64,000 nt of DNA from Polyangiaceae bacterium (GCA_965222375.1 CBDCTZ010000009.1:288001-352000); one strand, 5' to 3'. Positions 25,451 to 45,200 are shown, numbered from the stretch's first letter. Notes: generated by a model from the sequence alone, not told the origin. Numbers and translations are program-made.

Positions 25451-25460
25451 GGGCCTCGTC

Positions 25461-28432: not shown

Positions 28433-29299
28433 CTAGAGCGCGGAAACTTGAACGTGGCTGCGATCCGCGGCGCGGGCTGCGGCGTCGGCCCCGGTGGGGC
28501 TTTCCGCGCGCTGCACGTCGCCCTGTCGGACGCCGAGCAGCCACAGCATCAGCTGTGGCGGTGGCAGACCCAGATCCGGCGATGCACTGAAGACTCGAGC
28601 CAGCTCCCGGCCGTAGCCCCGGGAGAGCTTCAATACGGACAGGCCGTCGAAGGCGCCCGCCTTGGGCCGACTCGCCAGTGGAAGCGCCAGCAGGCTCGCG
28701 AAGAGTAGGCGGTAGATCAGGAAAAGCCGCCAGCGCTGCCACTTGGATTTGTCGGCCAGGACGCGGCGGAGGAAGTGCACGTTCAGAGGAACGTGGAAGG
28801 CCTCGTCTCGGGTCAAGATGGTCAGCATGCGCCGCGCCTGCTCGTCTTCCACGTTGCGCAGCGCCATGCGGTAGGTCGTGGAGCCGATCGTCTCGAACAT
28901 CAAGTTCGTGAGCACGATGGTTTCCATGCGCCGCGCCCGGGCGTACACGCTGTACAGGGTTTTGGTGACGCGACCCATGGGGCGCACCTCGCCGCCCAGA
29001 CGCTTCAAGAAGTCCAGCAGCAACTCTCGGTGCCAGCCTTCCTCGTCGCCGTAGAGCTGCAGCACTTCAGCAAGCTCGGGGTCTTCGGCCCGGGTGCTTC
29101 TGGCCAGGGCGTGGGCCTGGGATTGGCCCGACTCTTCCGCCCGCAGCGCCGCGTTGAAGAAGCGCACCGCGGCGTCTTGGACCAGCGCCGAGTCGAAGCG
29201 GATTGGTGCGGTGCCGAGGCCCGCCTCGGTCCGCGTGCGACGGCGCTTCAGAGTCTGGAGCCACCAAGAAGTGGGACGGTCGTTGACGGGGTGTGCCAC
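28433..29299 (-). CDS. Ferritin-like carboxylate-bridged diiron protein
   Basis: LRAEES...DEEGWH...FETIG...DEAFH gives the E...ExxH...E...ExxH ligand pattern. Start taken at GTG 29299. Confidence 0.75.
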   Translation of the reverse strand: MAHPVNDRPTSWWLQTLKRRRTRTEAGLGTAPIRFDSALVQDAAVRFFNAALRAEESGQSQAHALARSTRAEDPELAEVLQLYGDEEGWHRELLLDFLKRLGGEVRPMGRVTKTLYSVYARARRMETIVLTNLMFETIGSTTYRMALRNVEDEQARRMLTILTRDEAFHVPLNVHFLRRVLADKSKWQRWRLFLIYRLLFASLLALPLASRPKAGAFDGLSVLKLSRGYGRELARVFSASPDLGLPPPQLMLWLLGVRQGDVQRAESPTGADAAARAADRSHVQVSAL

Positions 29300-29327
29300 T
29301 GAATGCCTCGGGTCAGGTGTCCGATTA

Positions 29328-30068
29328 TCAACCCTGGCGCTGCAGCGCAACGACGAAGAAACCACCGAAGAATCTCAAAGGGGAATCACATAGCGCTCGC
29401 TCGGCGGTGCGAAGCACGGTCCGTGCTACGGGCAGCCGCATCAGACGGGCGGCTGGGGTCGCGACGCGGATCCCCCGGGAGCCGACGATGTCGAGGCCTT
29501 CAGGCACGTGCCGGCGAATGCCCAGCGGCGTGTCGAAGCGGGTGTAGACCTTGTCTTCGTGGGTGCCTTCGGCAACCCGCCCTGCGGGCGCCAAACGTTT
29601 GGCCAGGCCGCGCCAGCTGTAGGGGTTGTAGAATTCGGCCACGACCGTGCCGCCGGGTCGGGTGACCCGGGCCATTTCCGACAGGGCGCGCCGAATGTCT
29701 GGGATGTGAGCCAGCACTTTGAAAGAGCACGTTACATCGAAGCTCTCGCTTTGGAACGGAAGCTCCGTGGCGGAGCCCTCTACGACCTCGAGGCCGCGGG
29801 CACGGGCCTTTTCCAGCATGCCCGGGGAGAGATCCACACCCTGGGCGCGACGGGCAAAGCGCTCGATGCGGGTCAGCACCAGACCCGTGCCACAGCCCAC
29901 TTCCAGCACTTCACCACCTCGGCCAAAGCGCTCGACGTAGCCGGCTTCGAGCTCGTCCAACAGTTCGTGATAGCCACCGGGATCGTTGTCGCCGCGGTGG
30001 GATTCATACCCATCGCTGAAGGCGTCGTAATACGCGCGGTTGGCGTCGTGGCTGCCTGAGGCGTCCAT
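29328..30068 (-). CDS. Class I SAM-dependent methyltransferase
   Basis: VLEVGCGTG, GVDLSPGML, LPFQSESFD, EMARVTRPGG. Confidence 0.92.
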   Translation of the reverse strand: MDASGSHDANRAYYDAFSDGYESHRGDNDPGGYHELLDELEAGYVERFGRGGEVLEVGCGTGLVLTRIERFARRAQGVDLSPGMLEKARARGLEVVEGSATELPFQSESFDVTCSFKVLAHIPDIRRALSEMARVTRPGGTVVAEFYNPYSWRGLAKRLAPAGRVAEGTHEDKVYTRFDTPLGIRRHVPEGLDIVGSRGIRVATPAARLMRLPVARTVLRTAERALCDSPLRFFGGFFVVALQRQG

Positions 30069-30203: not shown

Positions 30204-31523
30204 CTACTTGCGAGCGATTCGGGCGTTCATGCGCTCGTAGGCGAGTTCTGTCGGCGTGATCTTGCGCTCTCGAGCTGCGGCCAAGAGCTCGGTCGTTTTT
30301 GCACCGCAGATTTGGGACAGGGAGGCATGTACTCGCTCGACGCTGGCCAGATCTGCGTAGGTGCGTTCCTCGTGGCCGGCGATGACCCCACCGACCGTGA
30401 TGGTCCAGTCGGGCTGTGTCAAAATGTCCCGTTTGGCCAGTGCTCTAGCCAATTCAATTTCGCCATCGATGCTATCGGCATCCAGAGTGTTGTTCGCCGC
30501 GCCGTAGATCAACTTGCAGCTCAGCTCCGGGATCTGCGCGTTGCCGATGACGCCGCCCAGGGCGCATGGCGCGAGCAGGTCGCAGGGCGTGGCAAGCAGT
30601 CCTTCCGGCTTCAGCAGCTCGAGGTTCGGGATGGCGGACTGCGCCATCTCGACCCGTCGCGGCTCGGGATCGAAGGCCGCAACCTGCATGCCTGCCAGTG
30701 CGAGCCGCTCCGCCAGCGCCAGCCCCACACTGCCGAGTCCCTGGACCACAGCCTTCTTGCCGTCCAACTTGGAGCTGTGCCACAGGAACGCTGCCGCCGC
30801 GCGGATGGCGATGAAGATCCCCTCGGCGGTCGGCGCACCGGTGGGGCCGAGCGGCGTCGAGGTGCCACACAGGATGTTCGGAGTGAAGCGCTGACTCAAG
30901 GCGTCGATCAGATCTCCGGATAGGCCTACGTCGGGCCCGGTCATCAGGTGGCCGCGGTCGATGCAGAAGCCCAAGAACCCCAGCCGTGCTTCGTCGCTGC
31001 CGGCAATGGGATCCGCGAACAGTGTCGTCTTGCTACCGCCATAGGGCAGTTCCGCGTGAGCGCATTTGTAGCTCATGGCCCGGGACAGGTTGAGACCTGC
31101 GGCCAGTGCGTGTCGTTCGTTCGCATTGCGGGGGTAGCGGCGGATGCCGCCTGCGCGCAAGGCGTGCTGCGGTCGGCGCAAGCCCAGCGTGCTCGAGTGA
31201 ATGTAATGTGCGACTCGGACCTGCAATTCCGGATGAACACAGAGCCACACCATTTCGTGATGACCGCGGCGCATCCCGTCGAGCAATGCGTCCATCGCCG
31301 CCCCGGCGCCTTGCTGGGTCAACAGTTCGCGGGTCTCCGTGTCGCCCAAAGCTCGAGCATCGCGACACGCGACCTGGTCCAGTGCATAGCGGCGTCCATA
31401 GCCGCGAAAGTCCCAGCTTGCATCGAAGTCCCGACTTGCGTTGAGAGAGAAGCCACCGCTGTCGTCCGTGAGGACGCGAAGGGTGGTCAGGTTGCCATCG
31501 ACCAATGCGTCAAAGAGCCCCAT
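30204..31523 (-). CDS. Glu/Leu/Phe/Val dehydrogenase family protein (leucine dehydrogenase-like) with N-terminal extension
   Basis: AGGIR, AMSYK, GGSK, GPDVG, QGLGSVG, PCALGG, GAANN. Start ATG 31523. Confidence 0.88.
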   Translation of the reverse strand: MGLFDALVDGNLTTLRVLTDDSGGFSLNASRDFDASWDFRGYGRRYALDQVACRDARALGDTETRELLTQQGAGAAMDALLDGMRRGHHEMVWLCVHPELQVRVAHYIHSSTLGLRRPQHALRAGGIRRYPRNANERHALAAGLNLSRAMSYKCAHAELPYGGSKTTLFADPIAGSDEARLGFLGFCIDRGHLMTGPDVGLSGDLIDALSQRFTPNILCGTSTPLGPTGAPTAEGIFIAIRAAAAFLWHSSKLDGKKAVVQGLGSVGLALAERLALAGMQVAAFDPEPRRVEMAQSAIPNLELLKPEGLLATPCDLLAPCALGGVIGNAQIPELSCKLIYGAANNTLDADSIDGEIELARALAKRDILTQPDWTITVGGVIAGHEERTYADLASVERVHASLSQICGAKTTELLAAARERKITPTELAYERMNARIARK

Positions 31524-31909
31524 GCGCCTGAGGGTACTCCTATTGTCGCAGTCCCGCGCGGCCGCGACCCACCGAGGTGCCGAGCGCATGCGCCTTGTTT
31601 GCAGCGGGTTGGTTCTGCCGCATCCCGTGTGGCGTGTCTTGGGGACCGCGAGATTGACGGTCGTCACGTGCCTGGCTCTTGCCGCGGCCCAGCGAGCACC
31701 CCCACCCAGGACCACTGTTTATGGATCTGCCTCTGGTCACGTTTTGTCGACTGGGAGCCACATGCTGGCAGAACTCGCCCACGGCTCCAGACGGAGTCTA
31801 TTTGTAAATGTCGGAATTTGTTGGAGAAATCGGGAAGCGACTCAGCAATCAGGTAGGCTCCGTCTTGGCCGGAGCACATCTTCGGCCATCGCACGTAGAA
31901 GGTGAGGCG

Positions 31910-33082
31910 ATGGAGCGAATCGGTGAGTACCTCGTCCGCGGGCTGGTCGGTGAGGGCGGGATGGGCAAGGTCTACGAGGCCGAGGAGCGCCTGAGCAAGC
32001 GTCGCGTCGCGCTGAAGGTGTTGCGCCCAGAGTTTTCCCGTTCGGAGGAGGGGCGCCAGATGTTCCTGAACGAGATGACGATTCTGGCGCACCTGGACCA
32101 CGCGAACATCGTGCGCTGCCTGGCCTGCACCGAAAGCGACGACCAGCTCGTGATGGCCCTCGAGTTCCTGGAGGGGCGAACCTTGCGTCAGGTGCTTGCC
32201 GACAACGGCGCCTTGAGCTGGGAAGACGCGGTCGGGATCGCCGTGCAGATCGCTTCGGCCTTGGCTGCTGCTCACCGCCAGCAGCCGCCGATTGTGCACC
32301 GGGATCTGAAGCCCGAAAACGTGATGGTCCTCGACGACGGCACGGTCAAGGTCATGGACTTCGGAATCGCCAAGGTGCTGCAGGCACTCAGCGGAACCAC
32401 GACCCATAGCGTGGGAACCCTGCAGTACATGAGCCCGGAGCAGATCGACGCGACGGGCATCGACAATCGAAGCGACCTCTACTGTCTTGGGCTGGTGATG
32501 TACGAGATGCTTTCCGGCAAGCCGCCGTTCGAAAGTGCCTCACCCCGAGAGTTGCTCAACGCGCAGTGCACGGAAAAGCCACCGGACCTACCAGAAGACG
32601 TGCGATCCGGATTGCCTCGGGGCGTCGAGCGGCTGGTATTCGAATTGTTGGAGAAATCCCCGGACGACCGGCCCGCCTCCGCGCGAGACGTGCTGCACGA
32701 CCTCGACCCATTTGCCCCATCCCTGACCCGCGCCCCGCGCTCCCGGGCCTCGGGGCACACCGAGCGCATGCCGGCGCAGCCCAAGCCGAGCGAACGCGAG
32801 CCCCAGGCCGCTGCCGATGACGAACAACCGGCAGCGCCGCCCGCCGCCAAGCCCTCGACATCCCAGCCGTCCAAGAAACCAACCCCTCGCGCTGATACGC
32901 TGGCACTGGTCGAAACCGCGACGGCGCCTCGGGACGTCAGCCGCAACACGGGCTTGATCGTGATCCTCGCGCTGTCCGTGCTTGCCGGCGTGGTGACCTA
33001 CTTTGTGCGAGCCAGTGGAGCCGACGAGACGCCTCGGGAGGCGCCGTCGGCCTCCGCCGTGAGCGGCGAAGAATTCAGGTGA
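31910..33082 (+). CDS. Membrane-anchored Ser/Thr protein kinase (intact catalytic motifs, minimal ectodomain)
   Basis: GEGGMG, VALK, HRDLKPEN, DFG, GTLQYMSPE, SDLY; C-terminal TM GLIVILALSVLAGVVTYFV. GGTGAGG RBS before ATG 31910. Confidence 0.93.
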   Translation: MERIGEYLVRGLVGEGGMGKVYEAEERLSKRRVALKVLRPEFSRSEEGRQMFLNEMTILAHLDHANIVRCLACTESDDQLVMALEFLEGRTLRQVLADNGALSWEDAVGIAVQIASALAAAHRQQPPIVHRDLKPENVMVLDDGTVKVMDFGIAKVLQALSGTTTHSVGTLQYMSPEQIDATGIDNRSDLYCLGLVMYEMLSGKPPFESASPRELLNAQCTEKPPDLPEDVRSGLPRGVERLVFELLEKSPDDRPASARDVLHDLDPFAPSLTRAPRSRASGHTERMPAQPKPSEREPQAAADDEQPAAPPAAKPSTSQPSKKPTPRADTLALVETATAPRDVSRNTGLIVILALSVLAGVVTYFVRASGADETPREAPSASAVSGEEFR

Positions 33083-36069
33083 GCGAACCGCCCGATATTC
33101 CGGGGCTCACGCCAGCTGAGGCCCTACCGGATTTCGGGCGTGCACGGCGCTTTCGCCTTCCCGAAGACGAAGAGCTGTGGCTGCTGCACGAGGCCGATCG
33201 CGCTGTGCAGCAGCGGTTGCTCGAATTGGGCGCTGTAGGGCTTGGGCGCTTCTCGCGGGGTGGGGAGACAGTAGATGAACTGTGGTTGGTGCGGGGTTCG
33301 GCCACGCCCACCTTGGCTGGCTTTCTCGAAACCTCCAAACAGGTGCCCGTCGCCGATGCTCTCGAGATCCTGAGCAGCCTGTTGCGCGTGCTGGTCTTCG
33401 CCGAAGACGAGGCGCTGTTCCCGGGGCCCCTGGTGCTGGCTCAGATCCCACTTCACGAACGCCGAGTGGAGGTCTCGGCGGATGAACTCGTCGCGAGCCT
33501 CCTCGGCCACGCGGAGGCGTCGCCCGCTGCGGCTTCCAGTCGCGCGTCGCCGCGTTGGACGCCTCCGGAGCAGTCCGAGGGCGCGCCTTGGAACAACGCT
33601 GCCAACCGCTACGTGATCGGGCTTTTGATGTACCGCCTCCTGTCCGGGGAGCATCCCTTCGGCGGTCGCGGACTCAGGTTGGCGCTGGAGGCTCGGGCCG
33701 ATCGACCACCGCCGCCCTTCACGCCCGAGGTTGCGGAGCAGCTTTCCCCAGGGCTGCAGTCGTTGTGCCTGCGCTGCCTCGAGCCGGATCCATCCCGACG
33801 CCCACGCTCCGCCCAGGAAATCCTCGACACCCTCGAAGACATTCTGAGCAGCTCCCAGAACCAAACGCCACCTCCCGCTACGTCGCAAAGCAGGCCGGGC
33901 GGCGAATCACCCGAGCCGACCTCACGGCAGGAGCCCCGAGCCCCGGCCTCGGCGCCGCCGCGAGCGGCTGTTGCGCCGGGGCAAGTCCAGGCGAGTCGAC
34001 GTTGGGGCGGCTGGTGGATGCTGCTGGGCCTGTGCACCGCCTTGGCTGCTTGGTGGGGGCTGTCGCGTGGGCGATCCACCGAGCCTCCGCCAGTTCGCGC
34101 TCGCGCCCCGTTGAGCGCTAGCGGTTTGATTTCTGCGGACTGCGCGAGCTGCCATCCACGTCAAGCTGGGGAGTGGCGTCGCTCCGTCATGGCGCACTCC
34201 GTGAAGAGCCCGTTGTTCTTGTCGCTCGAGATGTTGATCCAGGAGCAAGCCGGCAAAGACTTCGATTGTCCCAACGGCGCTGGGATCTTGCGAAAGGCCG
34301 ACGCACGCACCGCATGTCGGGATCGAAACAGTGGTCAATTGGTCACGGGCGCCGGCGGAGAACACTGGTGCGTCAATTGCCACGCCCCGGCGGACAATTT
34401 GGCTACCACCGTGCCCGCCTGGAATGGCCGAGAGCGCACCGACAATCCGACGCTCCGAGAAGCGCTCTCGGAGCGGGCCTTGGAAGGGATCTCGTGTGCG
34501 TTTTGCCACCAAGTGCATCCGCCCACGGCGGGCCGCGTCCCGGCGACGGAGCTGGGCAATCCGTTTTGGGTTTCCCCGGTCACAGGTCGACGCTTCTCGG
34601 CTCGCCCTGAAGACGCCACGGGTCGAGTCGGGATTTCCAACAGCGGCTACGCGCTCGATCTGCAAGCGCTGTTTGCTGGCGACAAGGTGCCCGGCGGCGC
34701 CCATGCGCGCCCGGATCCAGCCACCCGTGAGTATTTGCGCTCCAGCGACTTCTGCGGTGCCTGTCACGATGTGAGGCTCTTCGGCACCGACGTGATCGGC
34801 GTGAAAGAACGGGGTGAGCACTTCAAGCGCTTGAGAAACGCCTACAGTGAATGGTCGGCCTGGGCGGCGACGGAAGAGCGCGCCGGGCGAACCCCCGCCA
34901 GTTGCCAGGACTGTCACATGACGCAGTACCCGGGGGTCTGCACGGAAGAGGCGGGGGACCAAACCGCGGTGGCGTCGGGGCTGAGAGACTCCTGCCCGCC
35001 GGGAACCCACTTCCAGTCTCGGCCCCCCGGCAGCTACCCCAAGGGGCTTGCGGCAACCGGAGCCGTGAAGCCGCGCCGGCTGAGCCTGCACTACTTTAGT
35101 GGCGTGGACACGCCGCTGGATCCGGGCTTCGACCCGCGTTTGGCCGAGGGCGACTGGACGGACGTGTTTTCCATCCCCCAGTCCCTGAGTCGTCGCGCCA
35201 AGATGCTGCTGGCGGCATCCGTGGAGCTTTCGCTGGGCACGCCTCGTCTCCGCGGCAGGCGTCTCGAGCTGCCGGTCAGCATCGAGAACACCGGCGCTGG
35301 GCATCGCGTACCCGCAGGATTCAGTCAGGAGCGTGAGCTCTGGGTTCATCTGACGGTTCGCGACGAGCAGGGGCGCGCCTTGTACGAAGTCGGTCGCGTC
35401 GACCGCTCGGACCAAGACTTGCGCGACAAGGTGTTCCTGCGCGTCAACACCGACGACCGATTCACGGATGGCCAAGGTCGCCCCCAGGGGCTCTTCGGCG
35501 CGGACGTGGCAGATGGCCCGGATGTTCCGCGCTGGCAGCCCAATCCACAGCTGGGTGGGACCCAGTTCCGAGGGCTCGGCCTGATCAACTTCCAGAACGG
35601 CTTCTTACGATGCGTCGTGTGTATCGGGCGGGTGGATTTCGATGGCAGTTGTAGGGCGCTGCCCGGCCAGGATCGCGCGCGGGCAGACCGTTTTGCCGAT
35701 GGCAGCTACGACATCGACACGGGGGAGTGCCGGAGCAATCTATCCGGCGAAAACGCGCTCTTCGAAACCTACTTCCCGGTGGGTGCCCTCGACGCGTCTC
35801 GAGGCGTGTTCAAAGCGGCTGACGCCATCATCGATCGGCGCTCACTAGCTCCAAACCAGCCGGTCACCTACACCTACGATCTGTCCTTGTCCGGCAGGCC
35901 CCACAGCGTCGAAGCGCGACTCTTGTTCCGGGCGTTTCCCCCGTTTCTGATCCGCGCATTCATCGAATACGAAGCCAAGAAGCGCCCCGGGCGCTCCCTG
36001 ATTGGCCAGGCCGCCATGGACCGCCTGGAGATCGTCGAGCTCGCCAAGACGCGGGTGGTGCTTCCGTGA
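33079..36069 (+). CDS. Pseudokinase-TM-pentaheme cytochrome c fusion with a C-terminal Ig-like domain
   Basis: Kinase C-lobe remnants (SPRWTPPEQ, YVIGLLMYRLLSGEHPF, CLEPDPSRRP); TM WWMLLGLCTALAAWWGL; five CxxCH at 34141, 34369, 34495, 34753, 34903; NTGAGHRVPAG. Confidence 0.85.
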   Translation: MSEPPDIPGLTPAEALPDFGRARRFRLPEDEELWLLHEADRAVQQRLLELGAVGLGRFSRGGETVDELWLVRGSATPTLAGFLETSKQVPVADALEILSSLLRVLVFAEDEALFPGPLVLAQIPLHERRVEVSADELVASLLGHAEASPAAASSRASPRWTPPEQSEGAPWNNAANRYVIGLLMYRLLSGEHPFGGRGLRLALEARADRPPPPFTPEVAEQLSPGLQSLCLRCLEPDPSRRPRSAQEILDTLEDILSSSQNQTPPPATSQSRPGGESPEPTSRQEPRAPASAPPRAAVAPGQVQASRRWGGWWMLLGLCTALAAWWGLSRGRSTEPPPVRARAPLSASGLISADCASCHPRQAGEWRRSVMAHSVKSPLFLSLEMLIQEQAGKDFDCPNGAGILRKADARTACRDRNSGQLVTGAGGEHWCVNCHAPADNLATTVPAWNGRERTDNPTLREALSERALEGISCAFCHQVHPPTAGRVPATELGNPFWVSPVTGRRFSARPEDATGRVGISNSGYALDLQALFAGDKVPGGAHARPDPATREYLRSSDFCGACHDVRLFGTDVIGVKERGEHFKRLRNAYSEWSAWAATEERAGRTPASCQDCHMTQYPGVCTEEAGDQTAVASGLRDSCPPGTHFQSRPPGSYPKGLAATGAVKPRRLSLHYFSGVDTPLDPGFDPRLAEGDWTDVFSIPQSLSRRAKMLLAASVELSLGTPRLRGRRLELPVSIENTGAGHRVPAGFSQERELWVHLTVRDEQGRALYEVGRVDRSDQDLRDKVFLRVNTDDRFTDGQGRPQGLFGADVADGPDVPRWQPNPQLGGTQFRGLGLINFQNGFLRCVVCIGRVDFDGSCRALPGQDRARADRFADGSYDIDTGECRSNLSGENALFETYFPVGALDASRGVFKAADAIIDRRSLAPNQPVTYTYDLSLSGRPHSVEARLLFRAFPPFLIRAFIEYEAKKRPGRSLIGQAAMDRLEIVELAKTRVVLP

Positions 36070-38348
36070 GCGAGGCTGCTCTCGCCAAAGCATTTCGGTC
36101 GCCGTTCTTTCGCGGGCTGGATGATCGCGGGCGTCAAGACCTGTCGCTGTCCAGTCGAGTCATCGAAATGAAAGCGGGCGAGGCCTTCTATCAAGAGGGC
36201 CAAGCCGCGGATAACTTGTTCGTCGTCGTCTCCGGGGAAGTGGCCCTCGAAGCCGTGCGTCGGGGGGACGACAACCTGAGCACCCTGCGCCTGGCGCGCC
36301 GAGGTGATCTGTTCGGCGAAGAAGCAACGGTGGTGGGCGCTACGCGCCTGTCCAGCGCTCGGGCCAAGAGTGTTGCCTGCGCGGTCGAAGTGCCCTTCGC
36401 CGTCGTTTCGCGAGTCCGGGTGCGCAGCGGCGTTGCCGAGGACGTTTTGTCTCGGGAGCAGCGCGCCCTTCGCCGCGCGCTATCGAGGGATGCCCTGCTC
36501 GCGTCGGCGTTGGGGAGGGACTTGCCCGAAAGCGATCTCTCGCTGCTGCTCGACGCGGCGCAGTGGCGCCAGGTCGCCCGTGGCGACTTCGTGTTTCAGG
36601 CGGGGCAAGCGCCCGACCGGGCGAGCGTTCTGGTCGCGGGCCTGGTTCAGCTCCAGACCGAGGAAGGCGGTCGAACCAGGGTCAGCGCCTACCTGAGCCG
36701 CGGCGACATCTTGGGTGACGACGCGGTGCTCGGTGGTCGGTCTCACGAACTAACTGCCGTGGCCCTGGGGGATCTGCATCTGTTGTCGGTGCCGCGAGCA
36801 GCCCTGCGCAGCGCCGTGGACCGCAACTCAGAGCTGCTGCGTGGCTTGCGCCGAGTCGCAGAAAGCCGAGGCGAGGCGCAGCGAGGACTGGTGGAAGGGC
36901 GAAACGAAAACGCCACCGGCCATGTGCTCGGCGACTTGTATCGAATGCACATTGCACGCTCGCTCTTGGTGATCGACCAAGACAGCTGCGTGCGCTGTGG
37001 CCAGTGCTCCCACGCCTGTGGAGATGTCTATGGCGCCACGCGGCTGGTACGCCGGGGCGACAAGATCGTGACGTCCCTGAAGATGGCGGAAGCGCCGAGC
37101 AGTCTCTTGGTGCCCAACAGCTGCCAGCATTGCGAAAATCCATCTTGCATGATCGACTGCCCGACCGGAGCCATCGGGCGTGACCCCCGCGGCGAGGTCT
37201 TCATTCGAGAGGCGCTCTGCACCGGGTGCGGAGCCTGCGCCAAAGCTTGCCCTTGGGAGAACATCCGCATGGCGCCGCGCCCGGGCGGTGGCGAGGCGAC
37301 GGATTCCGCGGTGGGCACCAGCGCTCTGGTTGCCACCAAATGCGATCTATGTCGTGAGCGCGATGGGCCGGCCTGCGTGGCCGCTTGCCCGACCGGAAGT
37401 ATTCTGCGCGTCGATCCATCCCGAGACTTTACGGAGGTGCTTGCCCTGTTTCCCGGCCGCGCACCGGCGCCCACCCAGGACACCGCGTTGCCCGGGGCGC
37501 GGCGCTCGCTTCGCTTCGTGCCCCTCTTCGCCGGCTTGGCCTTGATGGGCATGGGAGGGGGCTTGCATGCCGGAGGATACCTACGCGCTGGCAGCGGGCT
37601 GGGACTGGTTTTTGGGTGGGTGTCGTTGCTTGTTTTGCTCTCCCTGTTTGCGTACGGGTTTCAAAAGCGCGGCTACCGTCGCATTGCACGAACCCGACAC
37701 AAGGGGGCCCGCGCCGAAGCTCTGGACTTGACCCAGGTGCCGACCCGACGTGCCTTCGACTGGCACACGTGGTTGGGCTTTTCCGCCCTGGGCGCCGTTG
37801 CGCTTCACGCGGGCCTGAAGCTGTCGGGCTCAGCGCATACCTTCGTGGGGACCATCTTTTGGTGCTCCAGCGCGTTGGGCGTGCTCGGTTTGGTGGCCTA
37901 CCGGGCGTTGCCCCGGGCGCTGACCCGCATCGAACGTCGCGGGCTGCTGCCGGAAGACTTTCGTCGCGAGCGTCAGCGTTTGCTCGACCGCCTCTACCAC
38001 GCGACTAGCGGCAAGAGCGAAGCCGTCAAACTGCTCGTGAGCCGCGTGCTCATGCCCTACGCTCGCGCGCCCTGGGGGGGCCTGGTGTTGGTCGCATCGC
38101 GCCGGTCCCTGCGAGAAGAACAGCAGCGGCTCAAGGGAAAGCTCGAGGGCATTCTGGGGGACAAGGCGGTGGCCCTCGAGCGCGATCTGGACGAACTGAT
38201 CAAGACCGTCGTGGAGATCCGCGCGCTGCCCGCGCGGCGAGTTCTGACCGCGCTGCTCCGGGGCGTCGTTCCCGCTCACGGGCTGACCCTGGGTCTGCTC
38301 GCCGTCTTCCTCGTGATCCACCTGATTGCCGTGTCGGGGTTGTTTTGA
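36066..38348 (+). CDS. Tandem cNMP-binding domains + DmsB/NrfC-type 4x[4Fe-4S] domain + membrane domain with putative di-heme b ligands
   Basis: FGEEATVVGATRLSS (phosphate-binding cassette); 16 Cys in CVRCGQCSHAC, CQHCENPSCMIDC, CTGCGACAKAC, CDLC...CVAAC; two H-X13-H helices. Confidence 0.88.
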   Translation: MSEAALAKAFRSPFFRGLDDRGRQDLSLSSRVIEMKAGEAFYQEGQAADNLFVVVSGEVALEAVRRGDDNLSTLRLARRGDLFGEEATVVGATRLSSARAKSVACAVEVPFAVVSRVRVRSGVAEDVLSREQRALRRALSRDALLASALGRDLPESDLSLLLDAAQWRQVARGDFVFQAGQAPDRASVLVAGLVQLQTEEGGRTRVSAYLSRGDILGDDAVLGGRSHELTAVALGDLHLLSVPRAALRSAVDRNSELLRGLRRVAESRGEAQRGLVEGRNENATGHVLGDLYRMHIARSLLVIDQDSCVRCGQCSHACGDVYGATRLVRRGDKIVTSLKMAEAPSSLLVPNSCQHCENPSCMIDCPTGAIGRDPRGEVFIREALCTGCGACAKACPWENIRMAPRPGGGEATDSAVGTSALVATKCDLCRERDGPACVAACPTGSILRVDPSRDFTEVLALFPGRAPAPTQDTALPGARRSLRFVPLFAGLALMGMGGGLHAGGYLRAGSGLGLVFGWVSLLVLLSLFAYGFQKRGYRRIARTRHKGARAEALDLTQVPTRRAFDWHTWLGFSALGAVALHAGLKLSGSAHTFVGTIFWCSSALGVLGLVAYRALPRALTRIERRGLLPEDFRRERQRLLDRLYHATSGKSEAVKLLVSRVLMPYARAPWGGLVLVASRRSLREEQQRLKGKLEGILGDKAVALERDLDELIKTVVEIRALPARRVLTALLRGVVPAHGLTLGLLAVFLVIHLIAVSGLF

Positions 38349-40375
38349 CCGAGCCTGCCTCGACCCCCAGGCCAACGCCGGCGTCGACTGCGGCGGACGA
38401 GCCGAGCGACGTGCGGCGCCTGAGCGGGCTGTATGCGGGTGCCATCGTGGCCGCGGTTGTGACCGTGCTGTCCGTGTTCATCAGCGAGGGGAGGGCGGCC
38501 CTCACGTCTCCCGGAGCCCTGTCGGCGCCCCACGTCCGCGCGGAGGTGGGGTGCGCGGACTGTCACTCCGCCTCGAAACCCGCCGCGGCTTGCGGCGAGT
38601 GTCACGGCCCACATCCCTCGACCCGCGCTGGCCATCAGGAGATGCGGCGCCAGGGCAAGATGTCCTGCATCACCTGTCATGACAGCCATCGCTCCGACCA
38701 AGGCGTAGCACTGCTCAAGAGCGGGATAGCCGAGCGTTACGGCAACGGTTGGGCGGTGCGGTCCAGCGAAGCAACGGGTTTTAGAGCCACCAAGCCGGTG
38801 TTCGTCGCCACCGTCGCTGCAAGCAAGTGTGGCGGCTGCCATCGCCTTTCGGATCCACGCGACGCGATCTTCACCTGCCTCGATTCCGCCACGCCCGGGC
38901 CAGCTGCGTCGCGGCCAACGCTGTGTTTCGACGAGCACCAAACCGCGGCCAATGCCCGGAAGAAAAAGGTCGCTCGAGACGGCGCATGGGAGGCTGCGCG
39001 CGTCGTGCTCAGCAATACGCCTGCCGCGCCGGCGTCGGGTCGCTTGGGCTGGCTGCTCTTGGGCCTCGGGGCGGGCGGCCTGGTCTGGACAGGACGCCAG
39101 CTCCAGTTGCGCTATCGCAAGCGGAGCGTAGGCGGGCGCCCCACCGGAGGCATGGTTCCCGCGCAAGTGGTGCGGCTGCCGCAGATCAACGCCGCCACCT
39201 GTCTGGGTTGCAACGCCTGCGTCGACGCGTGCCCCTACAACGTGATCGAAATGCGTTCCTACATCGCCGAGGTCGCGCGCCCGGACGATTGCTGCGGCCT
39301 GACCTTGTGTGAGCAGAAATGTCCCAACGGCTCTCTGGTCGTGCGCGAAGGCGAGCCCATCGTCGATCGCCCCCGGGTGGATGAGGAGCTTCAGAGCGCG
39401 GAAGTGCCGGGACTGTTCTTGGCCGGGGATCTCACCGGGCTGCCACTGATCAAGAACGCCATCAATCAGGGCGCGTATGCCGTGCGGGCGATTGCGAAAC
39501 AGCTTCCGAAGCGCAAGCGAGGCCGCTCGGAGTTGGACGCAGACGTCATCGTCGTCGGGGCGGGGCCCGCGGGGCTTTCGGCGGCACTCGAGGCCAAGAG
39601 TCAGGGCTTGAGCGTGGTCGTCGTCGAGCAAGGCAGCGTAGCATCGAGCATTCAAAGCTTTCCCCGGGGCAAGCTCGTTTTCGACCAGCCCTTGGACGTG
39701 CCCCTGGTGGGTGAACTCTGGTTGGAGGAATCCACCAAAGAAGAGTTGCTCTCCCAGTGGCTGCGCATCGTGCGTCGGCACAACCTGGACATCCGCGAAG
39801 GCACGCGGGTGATTCAGATCGCACCCTTTGAAGACGCGTCCGGGTTTCGAGTCCAAACCCGCACCGAAGATGGCAGCGAGAAAGAACTGCGCGGTCAGCG
39901 CGTCGTGCTCGCGATCGGGCGCCGGGGCACTCCCCGTCGCTTGGACGCACCCATCGAGGATGCTGCGCTTTCGCAGGTGTTCTACGGGATCTCGGACGCG
40001 TCGAGTTTCGCTGGCTCGAAGGTGTTGGTGGTCGGGTTGGGGGATTCCGCCTTGGAGGCGGCCGTTGCGCTCTGTCATCAACCCGATACCCATGTGACCG
40101 TCGTCCACCGAGGGCAGGATTTTCGTCGGGGCACCCCACGCAACATCGCGGCGCTCAAGACTGCAGCAGAGCGCGGCAAAGTGGACTTGAGGTTCGAAAC
40201 CGTGGTGACGAAGGTTTCCAAAGACCGCGTCACCCTGAGTACTCGTGGCGTGGAGAGCTCACTTTCGGTGGACGCGACCGTCGTCTTGATCGGTGCCCTG
40301 GCGCCCTGGCCCTTTCTAGAGCGGATCGGCATTCGTCGCCCCACCGAAGGGCGCAACTCGAACGGCGCAACGTAG
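38345..40375 (+). CDS. Tetraheme cytochrome c-TM-ferredoxin-TrxR-like FAD/NAD(P)H oxidoreductase fusion
   Basis: N-terminal TM; SPGALSAPH; CxxCH at 38552, 38591, 38666, 38828; second TM; CLGCNACVDACP; GLFLAGD; VVGAGPAG; VVGLGDSA; VHR. TTG start overlaps the previous stop. Confidence 0.87.
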   Translation: MTEPASTPRPTPASTAADEPSDVRRLSGLYAGAIVAAVVTVLSVFISEGRAALTSPGALSAPHVRAEVGCADCHSASKPAAACGECHGPHPSTRAGHQEMRRQGKMSCITCHDSHRSDQGVALLKSGIAERYGNGWAVRSSEATGFRATKPVFVATVAASKCGGCHRLSDPRDAIFTCLDSATPGPAASRPTLCFDEHQTAANARKKKVARDGAWEAARVVLSNTPAAPASGRLGWLLLGLGAGGLVWTGRQLQLRYRKRSVGGRPTGGMVPAQVVRLPQINAATCLGCNACVDACPYNVIEMRSYIAEVARPDDCCGLTLCEQKCPNGSLVVREGEPIVDRPRVDEELQSAEVPGLFLAGDLTGLPLIKNAINQGAYAVRAIAKQLPKRKRGRSELDADVIVVGAGPAGLSAALEAKSQGLSVVVVEQGSVASSIQSFPRGKLVFDQPLDVPLVGELWLEESTKEELLSQWLRIVRRHNLDIREGTRVIQIAPFEDASGFRVQTRTEDGSEKELRGQRVVLAIGRRGTPRRLDAPIEDAALSQVFYGISDASSFAGSKVLVVGLGDSALEAAVALCHQPDTHVTVVHRGQDFRRGTPRNIAALKTAAERGKVDLRFETVVTKVSKDRVTLSTRGVESSLSVDATVVLIGALAPWPFLERIGIRRPTEGRNSNGAT

Positions 40376-40617
40376 CTCCTGCAGTTCGAGTCGCTCTCCA
40401 CATTCGTGGTGCGTGCAGGGGCGGAGGTCACGAATCGCCCCGTCATCGCCACTAGATCTCGGAGGCACGCAGCAAAGCGCGGCCACCGAATCGCGTAAGT
40501 GTATGAAAATAAAGGACTAGGTCGCTCAGATCCGCGCGCGCCGTCATGCGTAGAAGTGAGCTGGGTGTAAGGCGGGCGGCGAACGCCCCGTTTTCGGTCG
40601 AAAGGGACAAACGCAGC

Positions 40618-42096
40618 ATGAAGGTCAAAACAGTTGGGCTCCTTTCCCTATGCGGCATGCTGCTTTCGAGCGTGACGGTTTGGTCCCTGACCAAAGATCG
40701 CGCGCTCGCGGAGCCCGAGCTGGGCTCGGCGCCCCTCGAGATCACTGCGCCGACGCCCCAGAGCGTCGGTGCGACCTTCACCGCCGGGCGCACCATCATG
40801 CTCGAAGGCCGGTTGGGCCACGACACGCTGCAGTCCGAAAAGGTCGGGGAGACCTTGTTGCTGCTCACCGCCACCGCGGACAAAGGCGCGGCGACCAAGG
40901 CGGCGTCGCCTCTGAACCTCTCGATCGTGATCGATCGCTCCGGCTCCATGAAGGGCCGCCGCCTCGCCAACGCTCTGGATGCCGCACGCGGCATGGTGGG
41001 ACGGTTGCGAGACGGGGATGCGGTCAGCGTGGTGACCTACAACACCACCACGGAGGCCATCGTCCCTTCGACGACCATCGACTCCTTCTCTCGAAGTCGC
41101 GTGTTGAGGTCCCTGTCCAATATTCGGGCCAGCGGAGATACATGTATCTCCTGCGGCATCGACGCGGGCATGGAGCAACTGCGGCGCCGCGGCGGCATGG
41201 TGGATCGCGTGCTGCTGCTCAGCGACGGTGAGGCCACCGCCGGCGTGCGCAACGTAGAAGGCTTCCGCCGCATCGGCTCTCGGGTGCGCAACATGGGCGC
41301 CAGCATCTCCGCCATTGGTGTGGACGTGGAATACAACGAGCGCGTCATGAGCGCCTTGGCTCTCGAGTCGAACGGGCGTCACCACTTCGTCGAAAACGCA
41401 GCGAAGTTGCCGGAGGTCTTCGACGCGGAGCTCAAGACTCTGGTGAACACCGTCGCAAAGGACACGGAAGTGGCCGTGCAGCTGGCGCCCGGGGTGACTG
41501 TGGCCCGGGTATTCGACCGAACCTTCCGCCAGGAGGGTGATCGTTTGATCGTGCCCTTCGGGACTTTCTCGGCGGGGGAAGAGAAGACCTTGTTGGTCAA
41601 GCTCGCCGTGGCGAAAGGTGCCGCTGGCAAGCGTCCCATCGCGGATGTGAAAATGACCTACGCTGATTTCGCTCAGGGCGGCAAAGGCACTTGCGTCGGC
41701 AAACTCGCCCTTGCTCTGACCGACGACCCCAGCCTGCTCGGCGGCCTCGATCCGGTCGTGCAAACCCGTCTGGTTCGCAGCGAGACAGCCCATGCCCTCA
41801 AGGAAGCGAACCGACTGTTCACTTCGGGCCGTACCGCGGAGGCGCGCAACAAGCTGCGCAACTCCCTCGATCAGGTCAATCGACAAAGAGAAGCCGCCCT
41901 TGCCCGCGCACCGAAGCCAAAGCGCGCTCGGCTGAAGGCAGATTTCGCGGATCAATCCGTGGCCCTTGGTGAAGCTTCGGAAGGATTCGCAGAAGCGCCC
42001 GCAGCGCAACCTGGCGCTGGTGCGCCTGCCGCAGCTCCCAGTCCGGCCGCACAGGTTCGGCGCAACGCATCGACCGCTGACGACTTCGCTTTCTAG
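40618..42096 (+). CDS. Secreted or membrane-anchored VWA domain protein (YfbK-like)
   Basis: N-terminal hydrophobic segment; MIDAS IDRSGSM, GDT, LLSDG. Start ATG 40618. Confidence 0.88.
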   Translation: MKVKTVGLLSLCGMLLSSVTVWSLTKDRALAEPELGSAPLEITAPTPQSVGATFTAGRTIMLEGRLGHDTLQSEKVGETLLLLTATADKGAATKAASPLNLSIVIDRSGSMKGRRLANALDAARGMVGRLRDGDAVSVVTYNTTTEAIVPSTTIDSFSRSRVLRSLSNIRASGDTCISCGIDAGMEQLRRRGGMVDRVLLLSDGEATAGVRNVEGFRRIGSRVRNMGASISAIGVDVEYNERVMSALALESNGRHHFVENAAKLPEVFDAELKTLVNTVAKDTEVAVQLAPGVTVARVFDRTFRQEGDRLIVPFGTFSAGEEKTLLVKLAVAKGAAGKRPIADVKMTYADFAQGGKGTCVGKLALALTDDPSLLGGLDPVVQTRLVRSETAHALKEANRLFTSGRTAEARNKLRNSLDQVNRQREAALARAPKPKRARLKADFADQSVALGEASEGFAEAPAAQPGAGAPAAAPSPAAQVRRNASTADDFAF

Positions 42097-42260
42097 CTTG
42101 GACTAACGCGGCATGCTGCCGCTTGCGAACGCGCCTGGCGCGTGAGACCGTTCAAAATCACCGACCCTGAGGGAGCTACCCCCTTCCGCCCAAGCCTGGG
42201 CGCGACGGCGGGCGCATGCCGAGCTGTTCGGTACCTAGGAAATCGAAACCGGAGCAAGTC

Positions 42261-45200
42261 GTGAACGAAGCCAAGAAGACGCTCGATCTCAAGAAGCTCG
42301 TGACGCGGGGGGTGCTGGCGCTCATGGCACTCGGCGTGGTTGTTGCCGTGATTGCCTACGTTGCAACCCGGAAACCACCGCCGGTCAAAGCATTGGCCAT
42401 CCAAGCGCGCCTGGAACTCGCTGCGGGTGAAGTCAGCGTGGACATGGGGGAGGGCCCTGCCCGTGCCGTGAGCGGCACGCCGCTCATGGACAATGCGCGG
42501 ATTGCCACCGCCGACGGAGCCCGCGCACTCGTACGGCTGCCAGATGGTTCGGCGTTGTTTATCCGAGCCGGGAGTGCCCTGAGCTTGGGCGCGGATTCCG
42601 TGAGCTTGGACAAAGGCGAGTACTTCGTGGATGCGCCCCCGACGGAACGAAAGCCAACGAGTCACGCCGTTGGGGAAGCGGTGGTCACCGCAGCGGAGGC
42701 CGGTTTCGATGTGCGTCGGGATGGCGACAGCGTAGTCGTCTACGTTGCGCGAGGCACGGCGACGGTCACGGGCAGGGGCGGACGCGCAGAAGTGAAGGCG
42801 GGTGAGCAAGCCACGATCAAGGGCGCCGACAAACCCGCTGTGTCGCCAGTGGCGTTCTGGGACGACTGGACCGGCGGCATGGCGGACTTTGGCTCGGGTG
42901 CGCTGCTTGCCGGTACCGGTGCCGGCTCGATCTATGGAGTCGACGTCGGGGCTTCGCCGGGTTCTCCGGCGCGCCGCCTGGAGATCAGCAAACAGTCGGT
43001 TCGCGCCGTGTTGCGGGAAGGGCTCTCGGAAACGGAAGTCGACCAGACCTTTTTCAACCCCGGCGAGCGCGCCGTCGAGGGTTGGTACTGGTTTTCCGTG
43101 CCCGAGGGCGCCAGCGTCACTGGCTTTGCTCTGGAAACCAACGGAATCCTGGTCGAGGGGGAGTTCAACGAACGTCGGGAGGCTGCGGCGCAGTACACCA
43201 CCGCGAAGTCGAGCGGTCACGCCCCGGCAATTCTGGAGTGGATCGATAGTCGAACCTATCGAGCGCGGATCTATCCGGTGCCTGCCGGTGGCAATCGTCG
43301 CGTCGTTCTGCGCTACATCGAAATGCGTCCGCCGGTGGGGTCGAAGCTGTCCTACGAATACCCCATGGGCGCCGGCAAGCCCGTGCGCATCGGCGAGTTT
43401 TCGCTGTCCGTGGACTTGGGGGACGCGGGCACCAAGATGAAGATTGCCACCCTCGCGGACGCGCGGGTGGAAAACGGCGGACGCCGAGTCACCATGCGCC
43501 GCTCTGGGTATACGCCCCGAGCCGACTTCCAGCTCGAGGCGGACCTGCCGAAGAAGCGCCCGCCCATGACCGTGGCGCGGTTTTCGGCTGGGGGCGAGAG
43601 CGCCGACTACGTGCTGGCTCGATATGTTCCTGACGTCGATTGGAAGAGCGCCAAGCAGCAGCGCGGTGACGTGGTGGTCGTAGTCGATACCTCTGCGGCG
43701 GGCGATGAGGCCGCGCATCAATTGAAGACGGCCGCAGCAGAGTCGATCCTTCGTGCCCTATCCGGCGAAGATCGTTTCGCACTGGTTGCCTTGGATGTGC
43801 GGCCCACCGTGCTCTATCCCAAAGATGGCCTCGCCAAGGCTGGCGACAAGGAGATAGCGAAGGCGCTGGAATCTTTGGCAGATCACGCCGTCGGGGGCGC
43901 CACGGATCTCGCCGCTCTCTTCGATGTGGCCCTCGGCCGTTTGCACGGCGCGGAGCAGCCCGCGGTGGTCTACGTCGGGGATGGCATCGCGACCAGCGGC
44001 GAAATGAGCGGGGAGCAGCTGGTAGAGCGCCTGCGCCGAGCCATTGGTACCTCCCGGGCCCGCTTGTTCACGGTCGGGGTTGGCACTGATGCCCACTATT
44101 CGCTTCTGGGCGAGTTGGCCCGTGCGGGCGGCGGCACGAGTTTGCGCGTCGACGAAGCCGAGCAGACGACGGCCCGCGCCCTGGAACTGGCCGCTGCGGT
44201 CAAGACCCCCACGATCACGGATCTCGAGATCGATCTCGGGGCTGGCTTGGACGAGCCGTTCTCCTCGGCCGCGGGCAAGGTCAGTCGCGGTTCCGAAGTG
44301 GTGGTGCTCGCCCGCACCCACCACGACATTCCCCGCATGGTCAAGGTGCGGGGGCGCCTCGGTGGCGAGAAGTTCGAAAAGGAGTACGAGGTCAAACGCG
44401 ACAGCAGCATCTTGAGCAGCTTTGTACCGAGGCTGTGGGCGGCTGAGTACGTGAAGCGCTTGCTGGGTTCCGCATCAGGACCCGAGGCCGAGCGCGGACG
44501 CATCGTGTCCCTAGGCGTGGACTACGGGTTGATGACGCCCTTCACGAGCATCTTGGCGCTCGAGAGCGAGTCCGCGTACATGCGCATGGGGATCCCGCGC
44601 AAGCGCACCAAACTGCGCGGCGTGCGCCTCGGCGCGCTCACCAAGGACGCAGAGATGCGTTTGGCCTCCCGGCACGCGGGGATCCCCGCTGCCAGCTTGC
44701 CGTTGGGTTGCAGCACGCTCGAGCGCATGGCCGGGGATTCAGAGCCAGCTCCTGCGGAGAATGTCAAGGGCAAGGCCTACGGGGTACAGGCAGCTCCGGC
44801 GAGCCCTGCGCCGGTGACTGCTTCGCCAGGCTTTGCGGGTAAGGACGACGAGTCTCGAGAGGAGGCCATGCCCGCCACTCAGGAGCCTCAAGCCGCGGCG
44901 GCTCCAGCGGAGGATTCCGTCGCCGAAGCCGAAGCGGATCAAGCTCCGATGAAGGCTCAGGTGGCCAAGAAGCCAGCGACGGGCCGCACCTATGCGAGAC
45001 CCAAGTATAGGCCGCGACCCAAGCCTTCTCTGGGCCCTGGGGCCTCGGGCGGCAAGGGGACCTTCGATGCGCCCAAGCGTCTCAACCGGCCCGCAGAGAA
45101 GAAAGAAGGCAAGCGCGGAGGGTTGGATCTTGCGAAACTCTCGGAGGGATTCAAACACTCGGGTCAGGTGGCTGTGCTGCGCACCTGCAGCGACACCTCT

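Follow-up and report, generated by a model that had tools for sequence, protein, structure and literature searches.

A conserved four-gene cluster of Polyangia combining the parts of a putative Ptd-type electron conduit with a Ser/Thr kinase and a cytochrome-fused pseudokinase

Background

The closest described gene set to the cluster analysed here is ptdABCDEFG, an operon named by Elbon, Stewart and Glass (bioRxiv 10.1101/2023.11.21.568154), whose function is called 'completely unknown' in the accessible text of that preprint. According to the same text, PtdA is a beta-sandwich pentahaem protein homologous to T. tepidum c552, PtdB is a porin, PtdC an FAD/NAD(P) oxidoreductase, PtdD a periplasmic tetrahaem protein, PtdE an iron-sulfur (FeS) protein that binds cyclic nucleotide monophosphates (cNMP), PtdF a ferric-reductase-like transmembrane (TM) protein, and PtdG a decahaem protein. 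As far as that text goes, the gene set is widespread, without known function and named in one preprint; our literature search with ptd terms found only this preprint. Here we report on four genes, at positions 31,910 to 40,375 of a window of 64,000 nucleotides (the whole stretch of DNA that was analysed) from a Polyangiaceae bacterium (GCA_965222375.1, CBDCTZ010000009.1:288001-352000), which encode a similar set of parts together with a Ser/Thr kinase and a pseudokinase.

The second relevant group is the PHC family of pentahaem cytochromes, which, in the accessible text of PMC11976967, includes T. tepidum c552 (5ZE8), Geobacter ExtKL and the cable-bacteria sPHC and lPHC; c552 is there termed low-potential. 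MccSep (9WT8) is described, in the accessible part of the MccSep preprint, as a PHC-family polysulfide reductase with a catalytic selenocysteine and a haem-ligating Cys239.

The first-pass annotation of the window had stated that no characterised system with this composition was known. Only part of this statement can be kept: the cofactor set already has a name, ptdABCDEFG, and ptd is, by the accessible account of it, still uncharacterised. The words 'kinase', 'FHA' and 'Polyangi' were not found in the accessible text of the ptd preprint (10.1101/2023.11.21.568154), and a literature search for a kinase-coupled composition of this type found nothing. Judged from the encoded proteins, the best explanation of the cluster would be a fused, kinase/FHA-coupled variant of the named, uncharacterised Ptd-type conduit that ends at the inner membrane. 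The best-supported reading of its action, which we regard as somewhat more probable than not, is an NAD(P)H-fed inner-membrane wire to periplasmic c haems.

Results and discussion

The four genes and their conservation

31808 or 31910 to 33082, plus strand: gene 1 (P0001), Hanks-type Ser/Thr kinase, 424 aa (amino acids) counted from 31808
33079 to 36069, plus strand: gene 2 (P0002), pseudokinase, TM anchor and pentahaem domain, 996 aa
36066 to 38348, plus strand: gene 3 (P0003), two cNMP-type domains, FeS domain and TM domain, 760 aa
38345 to 40375, plus strand: gene 4 (P0004), tetrahaem part, ferredoxin and FAD/NAD(P)H reductase, 676 aa

The four open reading frames (ORFs) and the letters of their junctions were confirmed as first annotated, with 4-nt stop/start overlaps at all three junctions in the window (GTGA at 33079, GTGA at 36066 and TTGA at 38345). 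The inventory of parts (kinase, pseudokinase, nine CxxCH, two cNMP-type domains, 16 Cys, a second ferredoxin, two H-X13-H and the reductase) likewise stood item by item. In gene 1, sequence conservation sets in at Met35 (31910), and the upstream ATG at 31808 is likewise open. The host genome is 10.5 Mb, and gene 3 is present in it once. The four genes are best explained as one translationally coupled operon.

A gene-3 match was found in 13 of 41 genomes: the host itself, 12 of 24 relatives from its family and none of 16 genomes that each represent another family of the order. Gene order was examined in 7 of the 12 matching relatives, and all four genes stand in the same order in each of the seven; overlaps of 4 nt were counted at 18 of the 21 junctions of seven orthologous loci, a count that is biased towards overlaps because the script assigned as start the first start codon close to the preceding stop. 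The arrangement nevertheless goes far beyond chance. When the phylum was sampled evenly, 16 of 301 genomes, host included, gave a gene-3 match. Nine of the 15 non-host matches have all four genes, one lies on a contig that begins inside gene 2, three have genes 3 and 4 only, and two have a different arrangement.

A scan with one genome per species gave 171 relatives, and synteny was tallied on the best 80 loci, picked via gene 3. The names among these best 80 are of the Polyangia type, for example Minicystis rosea, Polyangium spp., Sorangium sp., Enhygromyxa salina and Plesiocystis pacifica, and further Paraliomyxa, Byssovorax, Labilithrix, Kofleriaceae and Nannocystaceae. Gene 2 lies directly upstream of gene 3 in 57 of the 60 loci with enough upstream DNA, and a kinase gene lies within 5.5 kb upstream in 54 of these 60 (on the same strand in 48). 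Gene 4 follows downstream in 67 of the 69 loci with enough downstream DNA and is adjacent in 63. The search of gene neighbourhoods that had been named as a check with the first-pass annotation thus found the four genes together, with all four in 48 of the 56 loci having both flanks. The loci that break synteny are mostly rearrangements (in M. rosea the gene-2 orthologue is ~12 kb away). Note that these counts describe conservation and not independent events, because the genomes are kin and the loci were picked via gene 3.

The kinase gene adjoining the cluster is an orthologue across species loci (53-77% identity), and its occurrence in 54 of 60 loci ruled out a chance adjacency. A loose kinase adjacency would by itself be weak evidence, because the genome is crowded with kinases and FHA domains; the case rests on the fusions and on orthologous conservation. 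The same crowding is what speaks for the idea that the genes are mere neighbours, or unrelated proteins that share common domains, an idea that we consider extremely improbable in view of the conserved gene order and overlaps, of orthologues that are 40-77% identical and of fusions found across dozens of species. The four-gene cluster is a real, conserved unit of Polyangia.

A metagenome-assembled genome (MAG) labelled 'Candidatus Eisenbacteria' (L082) and a Polyangiaceae MAG of the same series (L083) gave equal tblastn identities and query ranges for all four genes, and their locus positions differ by a constant offset of 1082 bases. This pair may be a binning duplicate rather than a record of a second phylum.

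Sister arrangements and fusions

The reductase, FeS, cNMP-type, b-type TM and multihaem c parts travel together in at least four gene architectures. A sister type (L027:4208-10841, plus strand, with its mirror image in L028) consists of three overlapping genes and occurs in genomes that also hold the four-gene type. Its products are a Pyr_redox_2 reductase carrying three FHA domains, a ferredoxin-cNMP-cNMP-ferredoxin protein that has no TM helices, and a 779-aa TM-pentahaem protein, in which an N-terminal 5-TM domain with two H-X13-H is followed by a C-terminal pentahaem part. The pentahaem part matches the gene 2 ectodomain (BLASTP, 3e-20) and the TM domain matches gene 3 (hhalign, Prob 98.8, E 6.7e-17, 213 columns). 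TM-pentahaem fusions also carry the labels Anaerolineae and Thermodesulfobacteriota, and P0377 is a TM-pentahaem protein fused to FHA.

In two genomes of another family (L034 and L043), one protein combines FHA, the reductase, two cNMP-type domains and the four-cluster FeS domain; next to it are encoded a stand-alone TM protein of 282-314 aa with two H-X13-H and then a protein with FHA, a TM helix and a decahaem part. The stand-alone 282-aa protein of L043 was matched to gene 3 by hhalign (Prob 94.3, E 1.1e-7). Two of the three loci with genes 3 and 4 only (L029 and L031) were examined for FHA; their gene-4 homologues begin with between one and four FHA domains and are adjoined by additional multihaem genes. 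L029 also encodes a 539-aa protein with the end ...RFTARF, like that of an outer-membrane barrel. The fusions tell which parts are partners: FeS with the b domain, the tetrahaem part with ferredoxin and reductase, and, in the sister type, the b domain with the pentahaem part.

Two further genes were observed beside these loci. In L028, an M2 (angiotensin-converting-enzyme-like) peptidase gene adjoins the sister system. In L034 (11889-14321, plus strand), 3' of the FHA-decahaem gene, a secreted protein of 810 aa is encoded, which has a C-terminal HbpS-like domain of the haem-degrading/haem-sensing type.

Gene 4: tetrahaem loop, ferredoxin and reductase

38345 to 39094, plus strand: N-terminal part of gene 4, with a cytoplasmic tail, TM1 (aa ~27-47), the tetrahaem loop and TM2 (aa ~233-250)
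39179 to 39349, plus strand: cytoplasmic 2x[4Fe-4S]-type ferredoxin, aa 279-335 (Fer4_7/Fer4, with Fer4 at 279-330)
39362 to 40375, plus strand: FAD/NAD(P)H reductase, TrxR/YpdA/FNR-like, aa 398-668 (Pyr_redox_3, E 1.7e-36)

The periplasmic loop (aa 50-230) has four CxxCH and exactly four further invariant His (H63, H97, H115 and H198), with weak Pfam matches to cytochrome c3, c7 and Paired_CXXCH. In the ferredoxin, 8 of 8 Cys are invariant, and the second Cys motif is non-canonical (CCx4Cx3CP). The reductase part was matched by TIGR04018 (E 1.9e-40, below the cut-off) and, in PDB, by 7a7b (7.7e-25) and the FNR 3ab1 (3.5e-15). The 'GLFLAGD' FAD segment, which is normally C-terminal, lies at aa 340-395 (39362-39529) and precedes the GxGxxG start of the Rossmann fold; the match to YpdA ends at residue 266 of 328, and the GD segment itself has weak PDB matches. 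The position of this segment, N-terminal of the Rossmann start, suggests a circular permutation that places the ferredoxin beside the flavin.

The cytoplasmic tail contains an invariant S21-D22 within (T/P/S)-S-D-(V/L), just before TM1 (38396-38425, aa ~18-27). This motif is kept in FHA-bearing homologues of ~30% identity (L029:4138-7098, minus strand, and L031:3270-6938, minus strand) and could be a docking or phosphorylation site.

Gene 3: cNMP-type, FeS and membrane domains

36066 to 36845, plus strand: tandem cNMP-binding-type domains, aa ~10-260 (Pfam cNMP_binding, E 4.6e-28, two stretches)
36963 to 37415, plus strand: four-[4Fe-4S] ferredoxin-like domain, HycB/NrfC/FdnH-like, cytoplasmic, aa 300-450
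37518 to 38348, plus strand: five-helix membrane domain, putative dihaem b, PtdF-like, with a cytoplasmic helical insert, aa ~485-760

The best PDB match of the cNMP-type domains is the tandem domains of PKA RI-alpha. Among 50 homologues, the cassette of domain 1 keeps Gly in 50, Glu in 48 and Arg in 50, and that of domain 2 keeps Gly in 50, Asp (for Glu) in 50 and Arg in 46. The FeS domain has 16 Cys within residues 308-441, all invariant in the 50 sequences, and Foldseek gave 7z0s_B at 1.4e-5.

The membrane domain was modelled by AlphaFold2 with pLDDT > 90 (predicted local distance difference test) as five TM helices and a cytoplasmic helical insert. It has H-X13-H at 567 and at 738, with H567 and H581 on TM3 and H738 and H752 on TM5, and these four His are invariant in 50 of 50 sequences. 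TM2 and TM4 each precede a loop rich in K/R, and the N-terminal domains have no export signals; TM3 and TM5 would therefore run from inside to outside, and His567 and His738 would then hold the inner haem and His581 and His752 the outer haem. The Pfam hints for gene 3 are weak (E 1.2-1.3) and are all to dihaem-b families (Ferric_reduct at E 1.2 and Ni_hydr_CYTB at ~1); among relatives, the form in the sister type gave DUF4405 at E 0.013 and the stand-alone form Ni_hydr_CYTB at E 1.8e-6, with 28.3 bits against a cut-off of 30.1. Fold matches to hydrogenase-1 cytochrome b (HyaC-type, Z 7.0), b6f (6.7), FdnI (6.5) and NOX5 (6.4) lie below the noise level for helical bundles, and the best ESM Atlas score of 0.82, to an entry 'ferric reductase like', is a lead only. 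A word-based search for stand-alone relatives of the TM domain gave one fragment only. In the PDB sequence search with gene 3, the matches listed fall in the cNMP-type and FeS parts and none in the TM part, and that with the stand-alone TM homologue gave nothing relevant. Because no family or fold match reaches significance, the assignment of haem b is based on the four invariant His and on remote similarity.

These features bear on a different use of the membrane domain, in which the putative dihaem b of gene 3 would exchange electrons with the quinone pool, like NarI, FdnI and the Hya/Hyb cytochromes b, so that the system would be an NAD(P)H:quinone or quinol:cytochrome c oxidoreductase and not a direct wire from FeS to haem c. 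The FeS domain is of the FdnH/NrfC/HycB type, a partner of quinone-reactive cytochromes b, and the weak likeness of the stand-alone homologue to Ni_hydr_CYTB (E 1.8e-6) and the folds at Z 6.5-7.0 to hydrogenase-1 cytochrome b and FdnI point the same way, although neither reaches its threshold. Two TM helices tether the c-haem loop of gene 4 next to the b domain, and the direct fusion of the b domain to a pentahaem part in other genomes fits a direct transfer from b to c. We judge a quinone-coupled system to be improbable.

Gene 2: the pentahaem domain

34111 to 36069, plus strand: periplasmic pentahaem domain of gene 2 (PHC-family, PtdA-like), aa 345-996, five CxxCH

In addition to its five CxxCH, the ectodomain has eight invariant extra Cys, a GAGHRVPAGF motif and, in an 8-way alignment, exactly five further invariant His (H373, H542, H581, H671 and H742). 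Its profile matched T. tepidum pentahaem c552 (5ze8_A) at E 8.2e-13, and the aligned region takes in the haem part, the beta-sandwich block with GHxxPxG and the C-terminal end. MccSep (9wt8) was matched at E 0.004, and 931 relatives were found in the sequence library at E<=1e-3. The profile match to 5ze8_A in three blocks places the domain in the PHC family with ExtKL. In the HMMER alignment, AGHSIPDG of 9wt8 stands against GAGHRVPAG of gene 2, and Phe748 then takes the position of the catalytic selenocysteine of MccSep (U325).

All nine CxxCH of genes 2 and 4 and the FeS Cys (16 and 8) are invariant in 8-way alignments. Since exactly five and four further His are invariant, the nine c haems can all be bis-His. 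Neither a molybdopterin subunit nor NrfA with a CxxCK haem was found in the four proteins or the flanking ORFs. The first annotation, which had seen no catalytic subunit, is to this extent upheld as to molybdopterin domains, but the statement is too broad for gene 2, whose family includes the polysulfide reductase MccSep.

The proposed electron path

Predicted topology, another of the checks named at the outset, puts the FAD, FeS and cNMP-type domains in the cytoplasm, the two His pairs in the membrane and all nine sites for c haem in the periplasm. Export signals are absent from the FeS and FAD domains, and the CxxCH segments lie beyond TM anchors. On the wire reading, NAD(P)H would reduce the FAD of the C-terminal reductase of gene 4, and the electrons would pass to the two FeS clusters of the gene 4 ferredoxin and then to the four FeS clusters of gene 3. 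They would cross the membrane by way of two b haems of gene 3 (His567/His738 inner, His581/His752 outer), arrive at the four c haems, each bis-His, that the gene 4 loop carries in the periplasm, and finally get to the five PHC-type c haems of gene 2, which would act as the terminal donor or as a catalytic site. The continuous path from NAD(P)H through FAD, FeS and haem b to haem c, as first proposed, is thus supported by topology, invariant ligands and fusions, and its direction is our reading. Cofactor loading, complex formation, the direction of flow, the acceptor and all regulation of the wire are what we infer from this arrangement.

The redox span and the membrane potential would favour outward flow. 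Run inward, the same chain would accept electrons from low-potential donors in the periplasm or outside the cell and pass them, by way of the c haems, then the b haems and then the FeS clusters, to NAD(P)+ or to a pool of ferredoxin in the cytoplasm. Each cofactor step is reversible in principle, and c552, the solved member of the family, is termed low-potential in the accessible text of PMC11976967. Such flow would oppose the membrane potential, and by established bioenergetics a reduction of NAD(P)+ would call for a donor of very low potential; moreover, the relatives bear myxobacterial labels (Sorangium, Polyangium, Minicystis). Myxobacteria of these types are aerobic heterotrophs. We regard inward flow as very improbable.

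With regard to the acceptor, a porin (PtdB) and a decahaem protein (PtdG) were found neither among the four genes nor in the flanking ORFs, and a search of the host genome with one decahaem query and one porin-like query from L029 gave no match beyond the FHA part of the decahaem protein. Because no outer-membrane parts are present here, the acceptor should be periplasmic or diffusible.

Kinase and pseudokinase

Gene 1, aa 44-297, plus strand: kinase domain (Pfam Pkinase, E 2.4e-56, 191.5 bits)
33079 to 33858, plus strand: cytoplasmic pseudokinase of gene 2, aa ~1-260, by C-lobe homology
34003 to 34065, plus strand: TM anchor of gene 2, aa ~309-329, a hydrophobic Trp-rich stretch

The G-loop, K70, E89, HRD, N171, DFG and SPE of gene 1 are invariant in eight orthologues, and gene 1 is the highest-scoring Pkinase match in the whole genome; its motifs mark it as a canonical, active Hanks-type Ser/Thr kinase. 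Gene 1 also has a conserved juxtamembrane 'RADTxALVE', a C-terminal TM helix (aa ~382-400) and a 25-aa tail. In gene 2, the Pkinase match at aa 150-249 is sub-threshold, scoring 25.6 bits where the cut-off is 31.7. PDB kinases cover aa 76-259 (E 9e-10), and 94 residues are 34% identical to gene 1 (BLASTP, E 2e-14). FPG stands at the HRD position and ADE at the DFG position, as read by eye from the alignment of eight orthologues, and neither a G-loop nor VAIK was seen in the N-terminus in the translation and the alignment. By its motifs, the N-terminus of gene 2 is a pseudokinase, which has kept the kinase C-lobe and lost the catalytic motifs. The TM anchor is hydrophobic in 8 of 8 orthologues and was not picked up by a crude hydropathy scan.

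Two signalling layers would thus be added to the wire. The PKA-R-like tandem cNMP-type domains would stand at the entry of the FeS chain, and the terminal cytochrome would be the outer half of a TM pseudokinase, probably paired with the membrane-anchored kinase of gene 1, so that the pair would either turn the wire on and off or signal its redox state. Gating by cNMP, together with control or read-out by the kinase pair, is plausible in view of the cassette Arg and of the recurrent FHA and pseudokinase fusions.

The layout of a pseudokinase, a TM helix and an ectodomain beside an active membrane-anchored kinase is, however, also that of a receptor, and the pentahaem domain of gene 2 might be a periplasmic redox or ligand sensor that allosterically activates gene 1. 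The output would then be phosphorylation and not bulk electrons, and the role of genes 3 and 4 would be limited to poising or resetting this sensor with NAD(P)H electrons. In agreement with this, the nine c haems can be six-coordinate bis-His, so that no open catalytic site is evident, Phe stands in gene 2 at the position of the catalytic selenocysteine of MccSep, and a porin, a decahaem protein or another downstream acceptor was not found in the genome with the queries used. On the other hand, the core of genes 3 and 4 is kept without the kinase pair in distant lineages (L029-L031), the cofactor set is that of the ptd operons, which carry porins and decahaem proteins according to the accessible text of 10.1101/2023.11.21.568154, and a chain of 17 cofactors from NAD(P)H to the periplasm would be costly for a mere reset line. 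We hold a redox-sensing receptor kinase to be rather unlikely as the function of the cluster, and note that it and the wire are compatible with each other.

A more speculative combination, to which we give little credence, is that Polyangia have built a Ptd-type wire into a eukaryote-like signalling device, in which the pentahaem part would be the ectodomain of a receptor-pseudokinase that drives a Hanks kinase by allostery. The PKA-R-like cNMP-type domains would gate the entry of electrons, and in other Myxococcota FHA domains would bring the wire to phospho-threonine marks. If true, this would represent the first receptor kinase with a multihaem cytochrome and a bacterial parallel to the NADPH-oxidase burst, which is switched by phosphorylation. 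Such a device could serve the regulated export of reducing power, for example to form reactive oxygen or to reduce metals during predation or polymer decay.

Points that weigh against the wire

Several observations weigh against the reading of the cluster as a Ptd-type wire. The genomes compared are related and are thus non-independent samples, and the host genome alone has at least 152 Pkinase and at least 81 FHA matches, Myxococcota being rich in both. In gene 3, the second cNMP-type domain carries Asp and His at the positions of Glu and Arg in PKA, the AlphaFold2 model of the FeS domain is poor (pLDDT 35-58), and the TM domain stays below every Pfam threshold; its best fold match, at Z 7.9, is a designed dihaem bundle and is itself below the noise level for helical bundles. 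A quinone site may be present on the b domain of gene 3. Finally, membership in the Ptd type would follow indirectly, from shared homology to c552, from the intermediates L034 and L043 and from domain composition as given in the accessible ptd text.

Flanking genes and other scans

A VWA-domain gene (40546-42096, plus strand) starts 171 bp 3' of gene 4, and beyond it lies a gene for a FecR-VIT-VWA-TPR protein of 1421 aa (42216-46481, plus strand). A VWA gene is also directly 3' of gene 4 in L022, L024, L032 and L033, and a few kb off in L020 and L026; it may be a fifth member of the operon or mere conserved synteny. The 5' flank has genes at 25359-27284 (plus strand) and at 28433-29365, 29328-30068 and 30204-31715 (minus strand), and its contents are a second Ser/Thr kinase, a rubrerythrin/ferritin-like gene, a class-I methyltransferase and a Glu/Leu/Trp-dehydrogenase-like gene, the last encoding 503 aa with a long N-terminal extension. 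The methyltransferase and rubrerythrin-like genes recur 5' of the cluster in L020, L025 and L026. An Rfam scan of 24000-47000 at E<=0.1 gave 0 matches, and in a scan for promoters and terminators the counts were no higher than the shuffled level.

Implications

The recurrent fused link to Ser/Thr phospho-signalling and to cNMP-type domains points to a tightly switched electron export rather than a constitutive respiration, and bacterial receptors would gain a new kind in a pseudokinase that is fused to a multihaem cytochrome. Because outer-membrane parts are missing from this form, it allows the inner-membrane core to be studied by itself. The idea is testable, since cultured carriers are named: Minicystis rosea, Polyangium spp., Enhygromyxa salina, Plesiocystis pacifica and Sorangium sp.

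Comparison with known systems

The four-cluster ferredoxin-like domain beside a helical bundle, with two His pairs of 14-residue spacing on two helices, is shared with NarHI, FdnHI and HyaC. The present system differs in that a single chain holds both the FeS and the b domain, with the FeS domain in the cytoplasm and cNMP-type domains in front of it; the four-gene cluster has no catalytic molybdopterin or NiFe subunit. A standard Dms/Nrf/Fdh operon was ruled out, as no catalytic subunit is present and only an FeS-subunit-like domain is common to both.

The NOX/FRE family and MsrQ-Fre presumably share the logic of NAD(P)H, flavin, two stacked b haems and an acceptor outside the membrane, and eukaryotic NOX enzymes are also switched by phosphorylation. 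Here, in contrast, the flavoprotein is TrxR/YpdA/FNR-like and resides on another chain, six FeS clusters would come between, and nine c haems would come after. Membership in the NOX/FRE family was rejected, because the TM domain is not Ferric_reduct (E 1.2) and the flavin family is of the Pyr_redox_3/YpdA type. We take the mycobacterial PknB-MviN-FhaA system to be similar, since there too an active Ser/Thr kinase works in one functional context with FHA domains and with a membrane protein whose cytoplasmic domain is a pseudokinase. In the present cluster, by contrast, a multihaem cytochrome forms the extracytoplasmic part, and redox proteins are the partners.

Gene 2 shares with the PHC family the five CxxCH, the GHxxPxG motif in a beta-sandwich part and the three aligned blocks of 5ZE8. 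It differs in its size (~650 aa), its large insertions and its eight extra invariant Cys, and in that a TM helix tethers it to a pseudokinase in the cytoplasm; Phe748 of gene 2 takes the place of the catalytic selenocysteine of MccSep.

As for ptd, which we compared by the descriptions in the accessible text and without Ptd sequences, the gene 2 ectodomain resembles PtdA, gene 3 resembles PtdE and PtdF, and gene 4 resembles PtdD and PtdC with a ferredoxin, the likeness to PtdC and PtdD being one of composition. According to that text, the carriers of ptd are marine Proteobacteria, Nitrospirales and Planctomycetes, whereas the present host is a soil-type member of Polyangia. Compared with the operon so described, five parts are here fused into three polypeptides, a ferredoxin domain is extra, and a kinase and a pseudokinase are added. 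What is new is this coupling to Ser/Thr signalling, by an active kinase and a cytochrome-fused pseudokinase in the present cluster and by FHA fusions in other Myxococcota.

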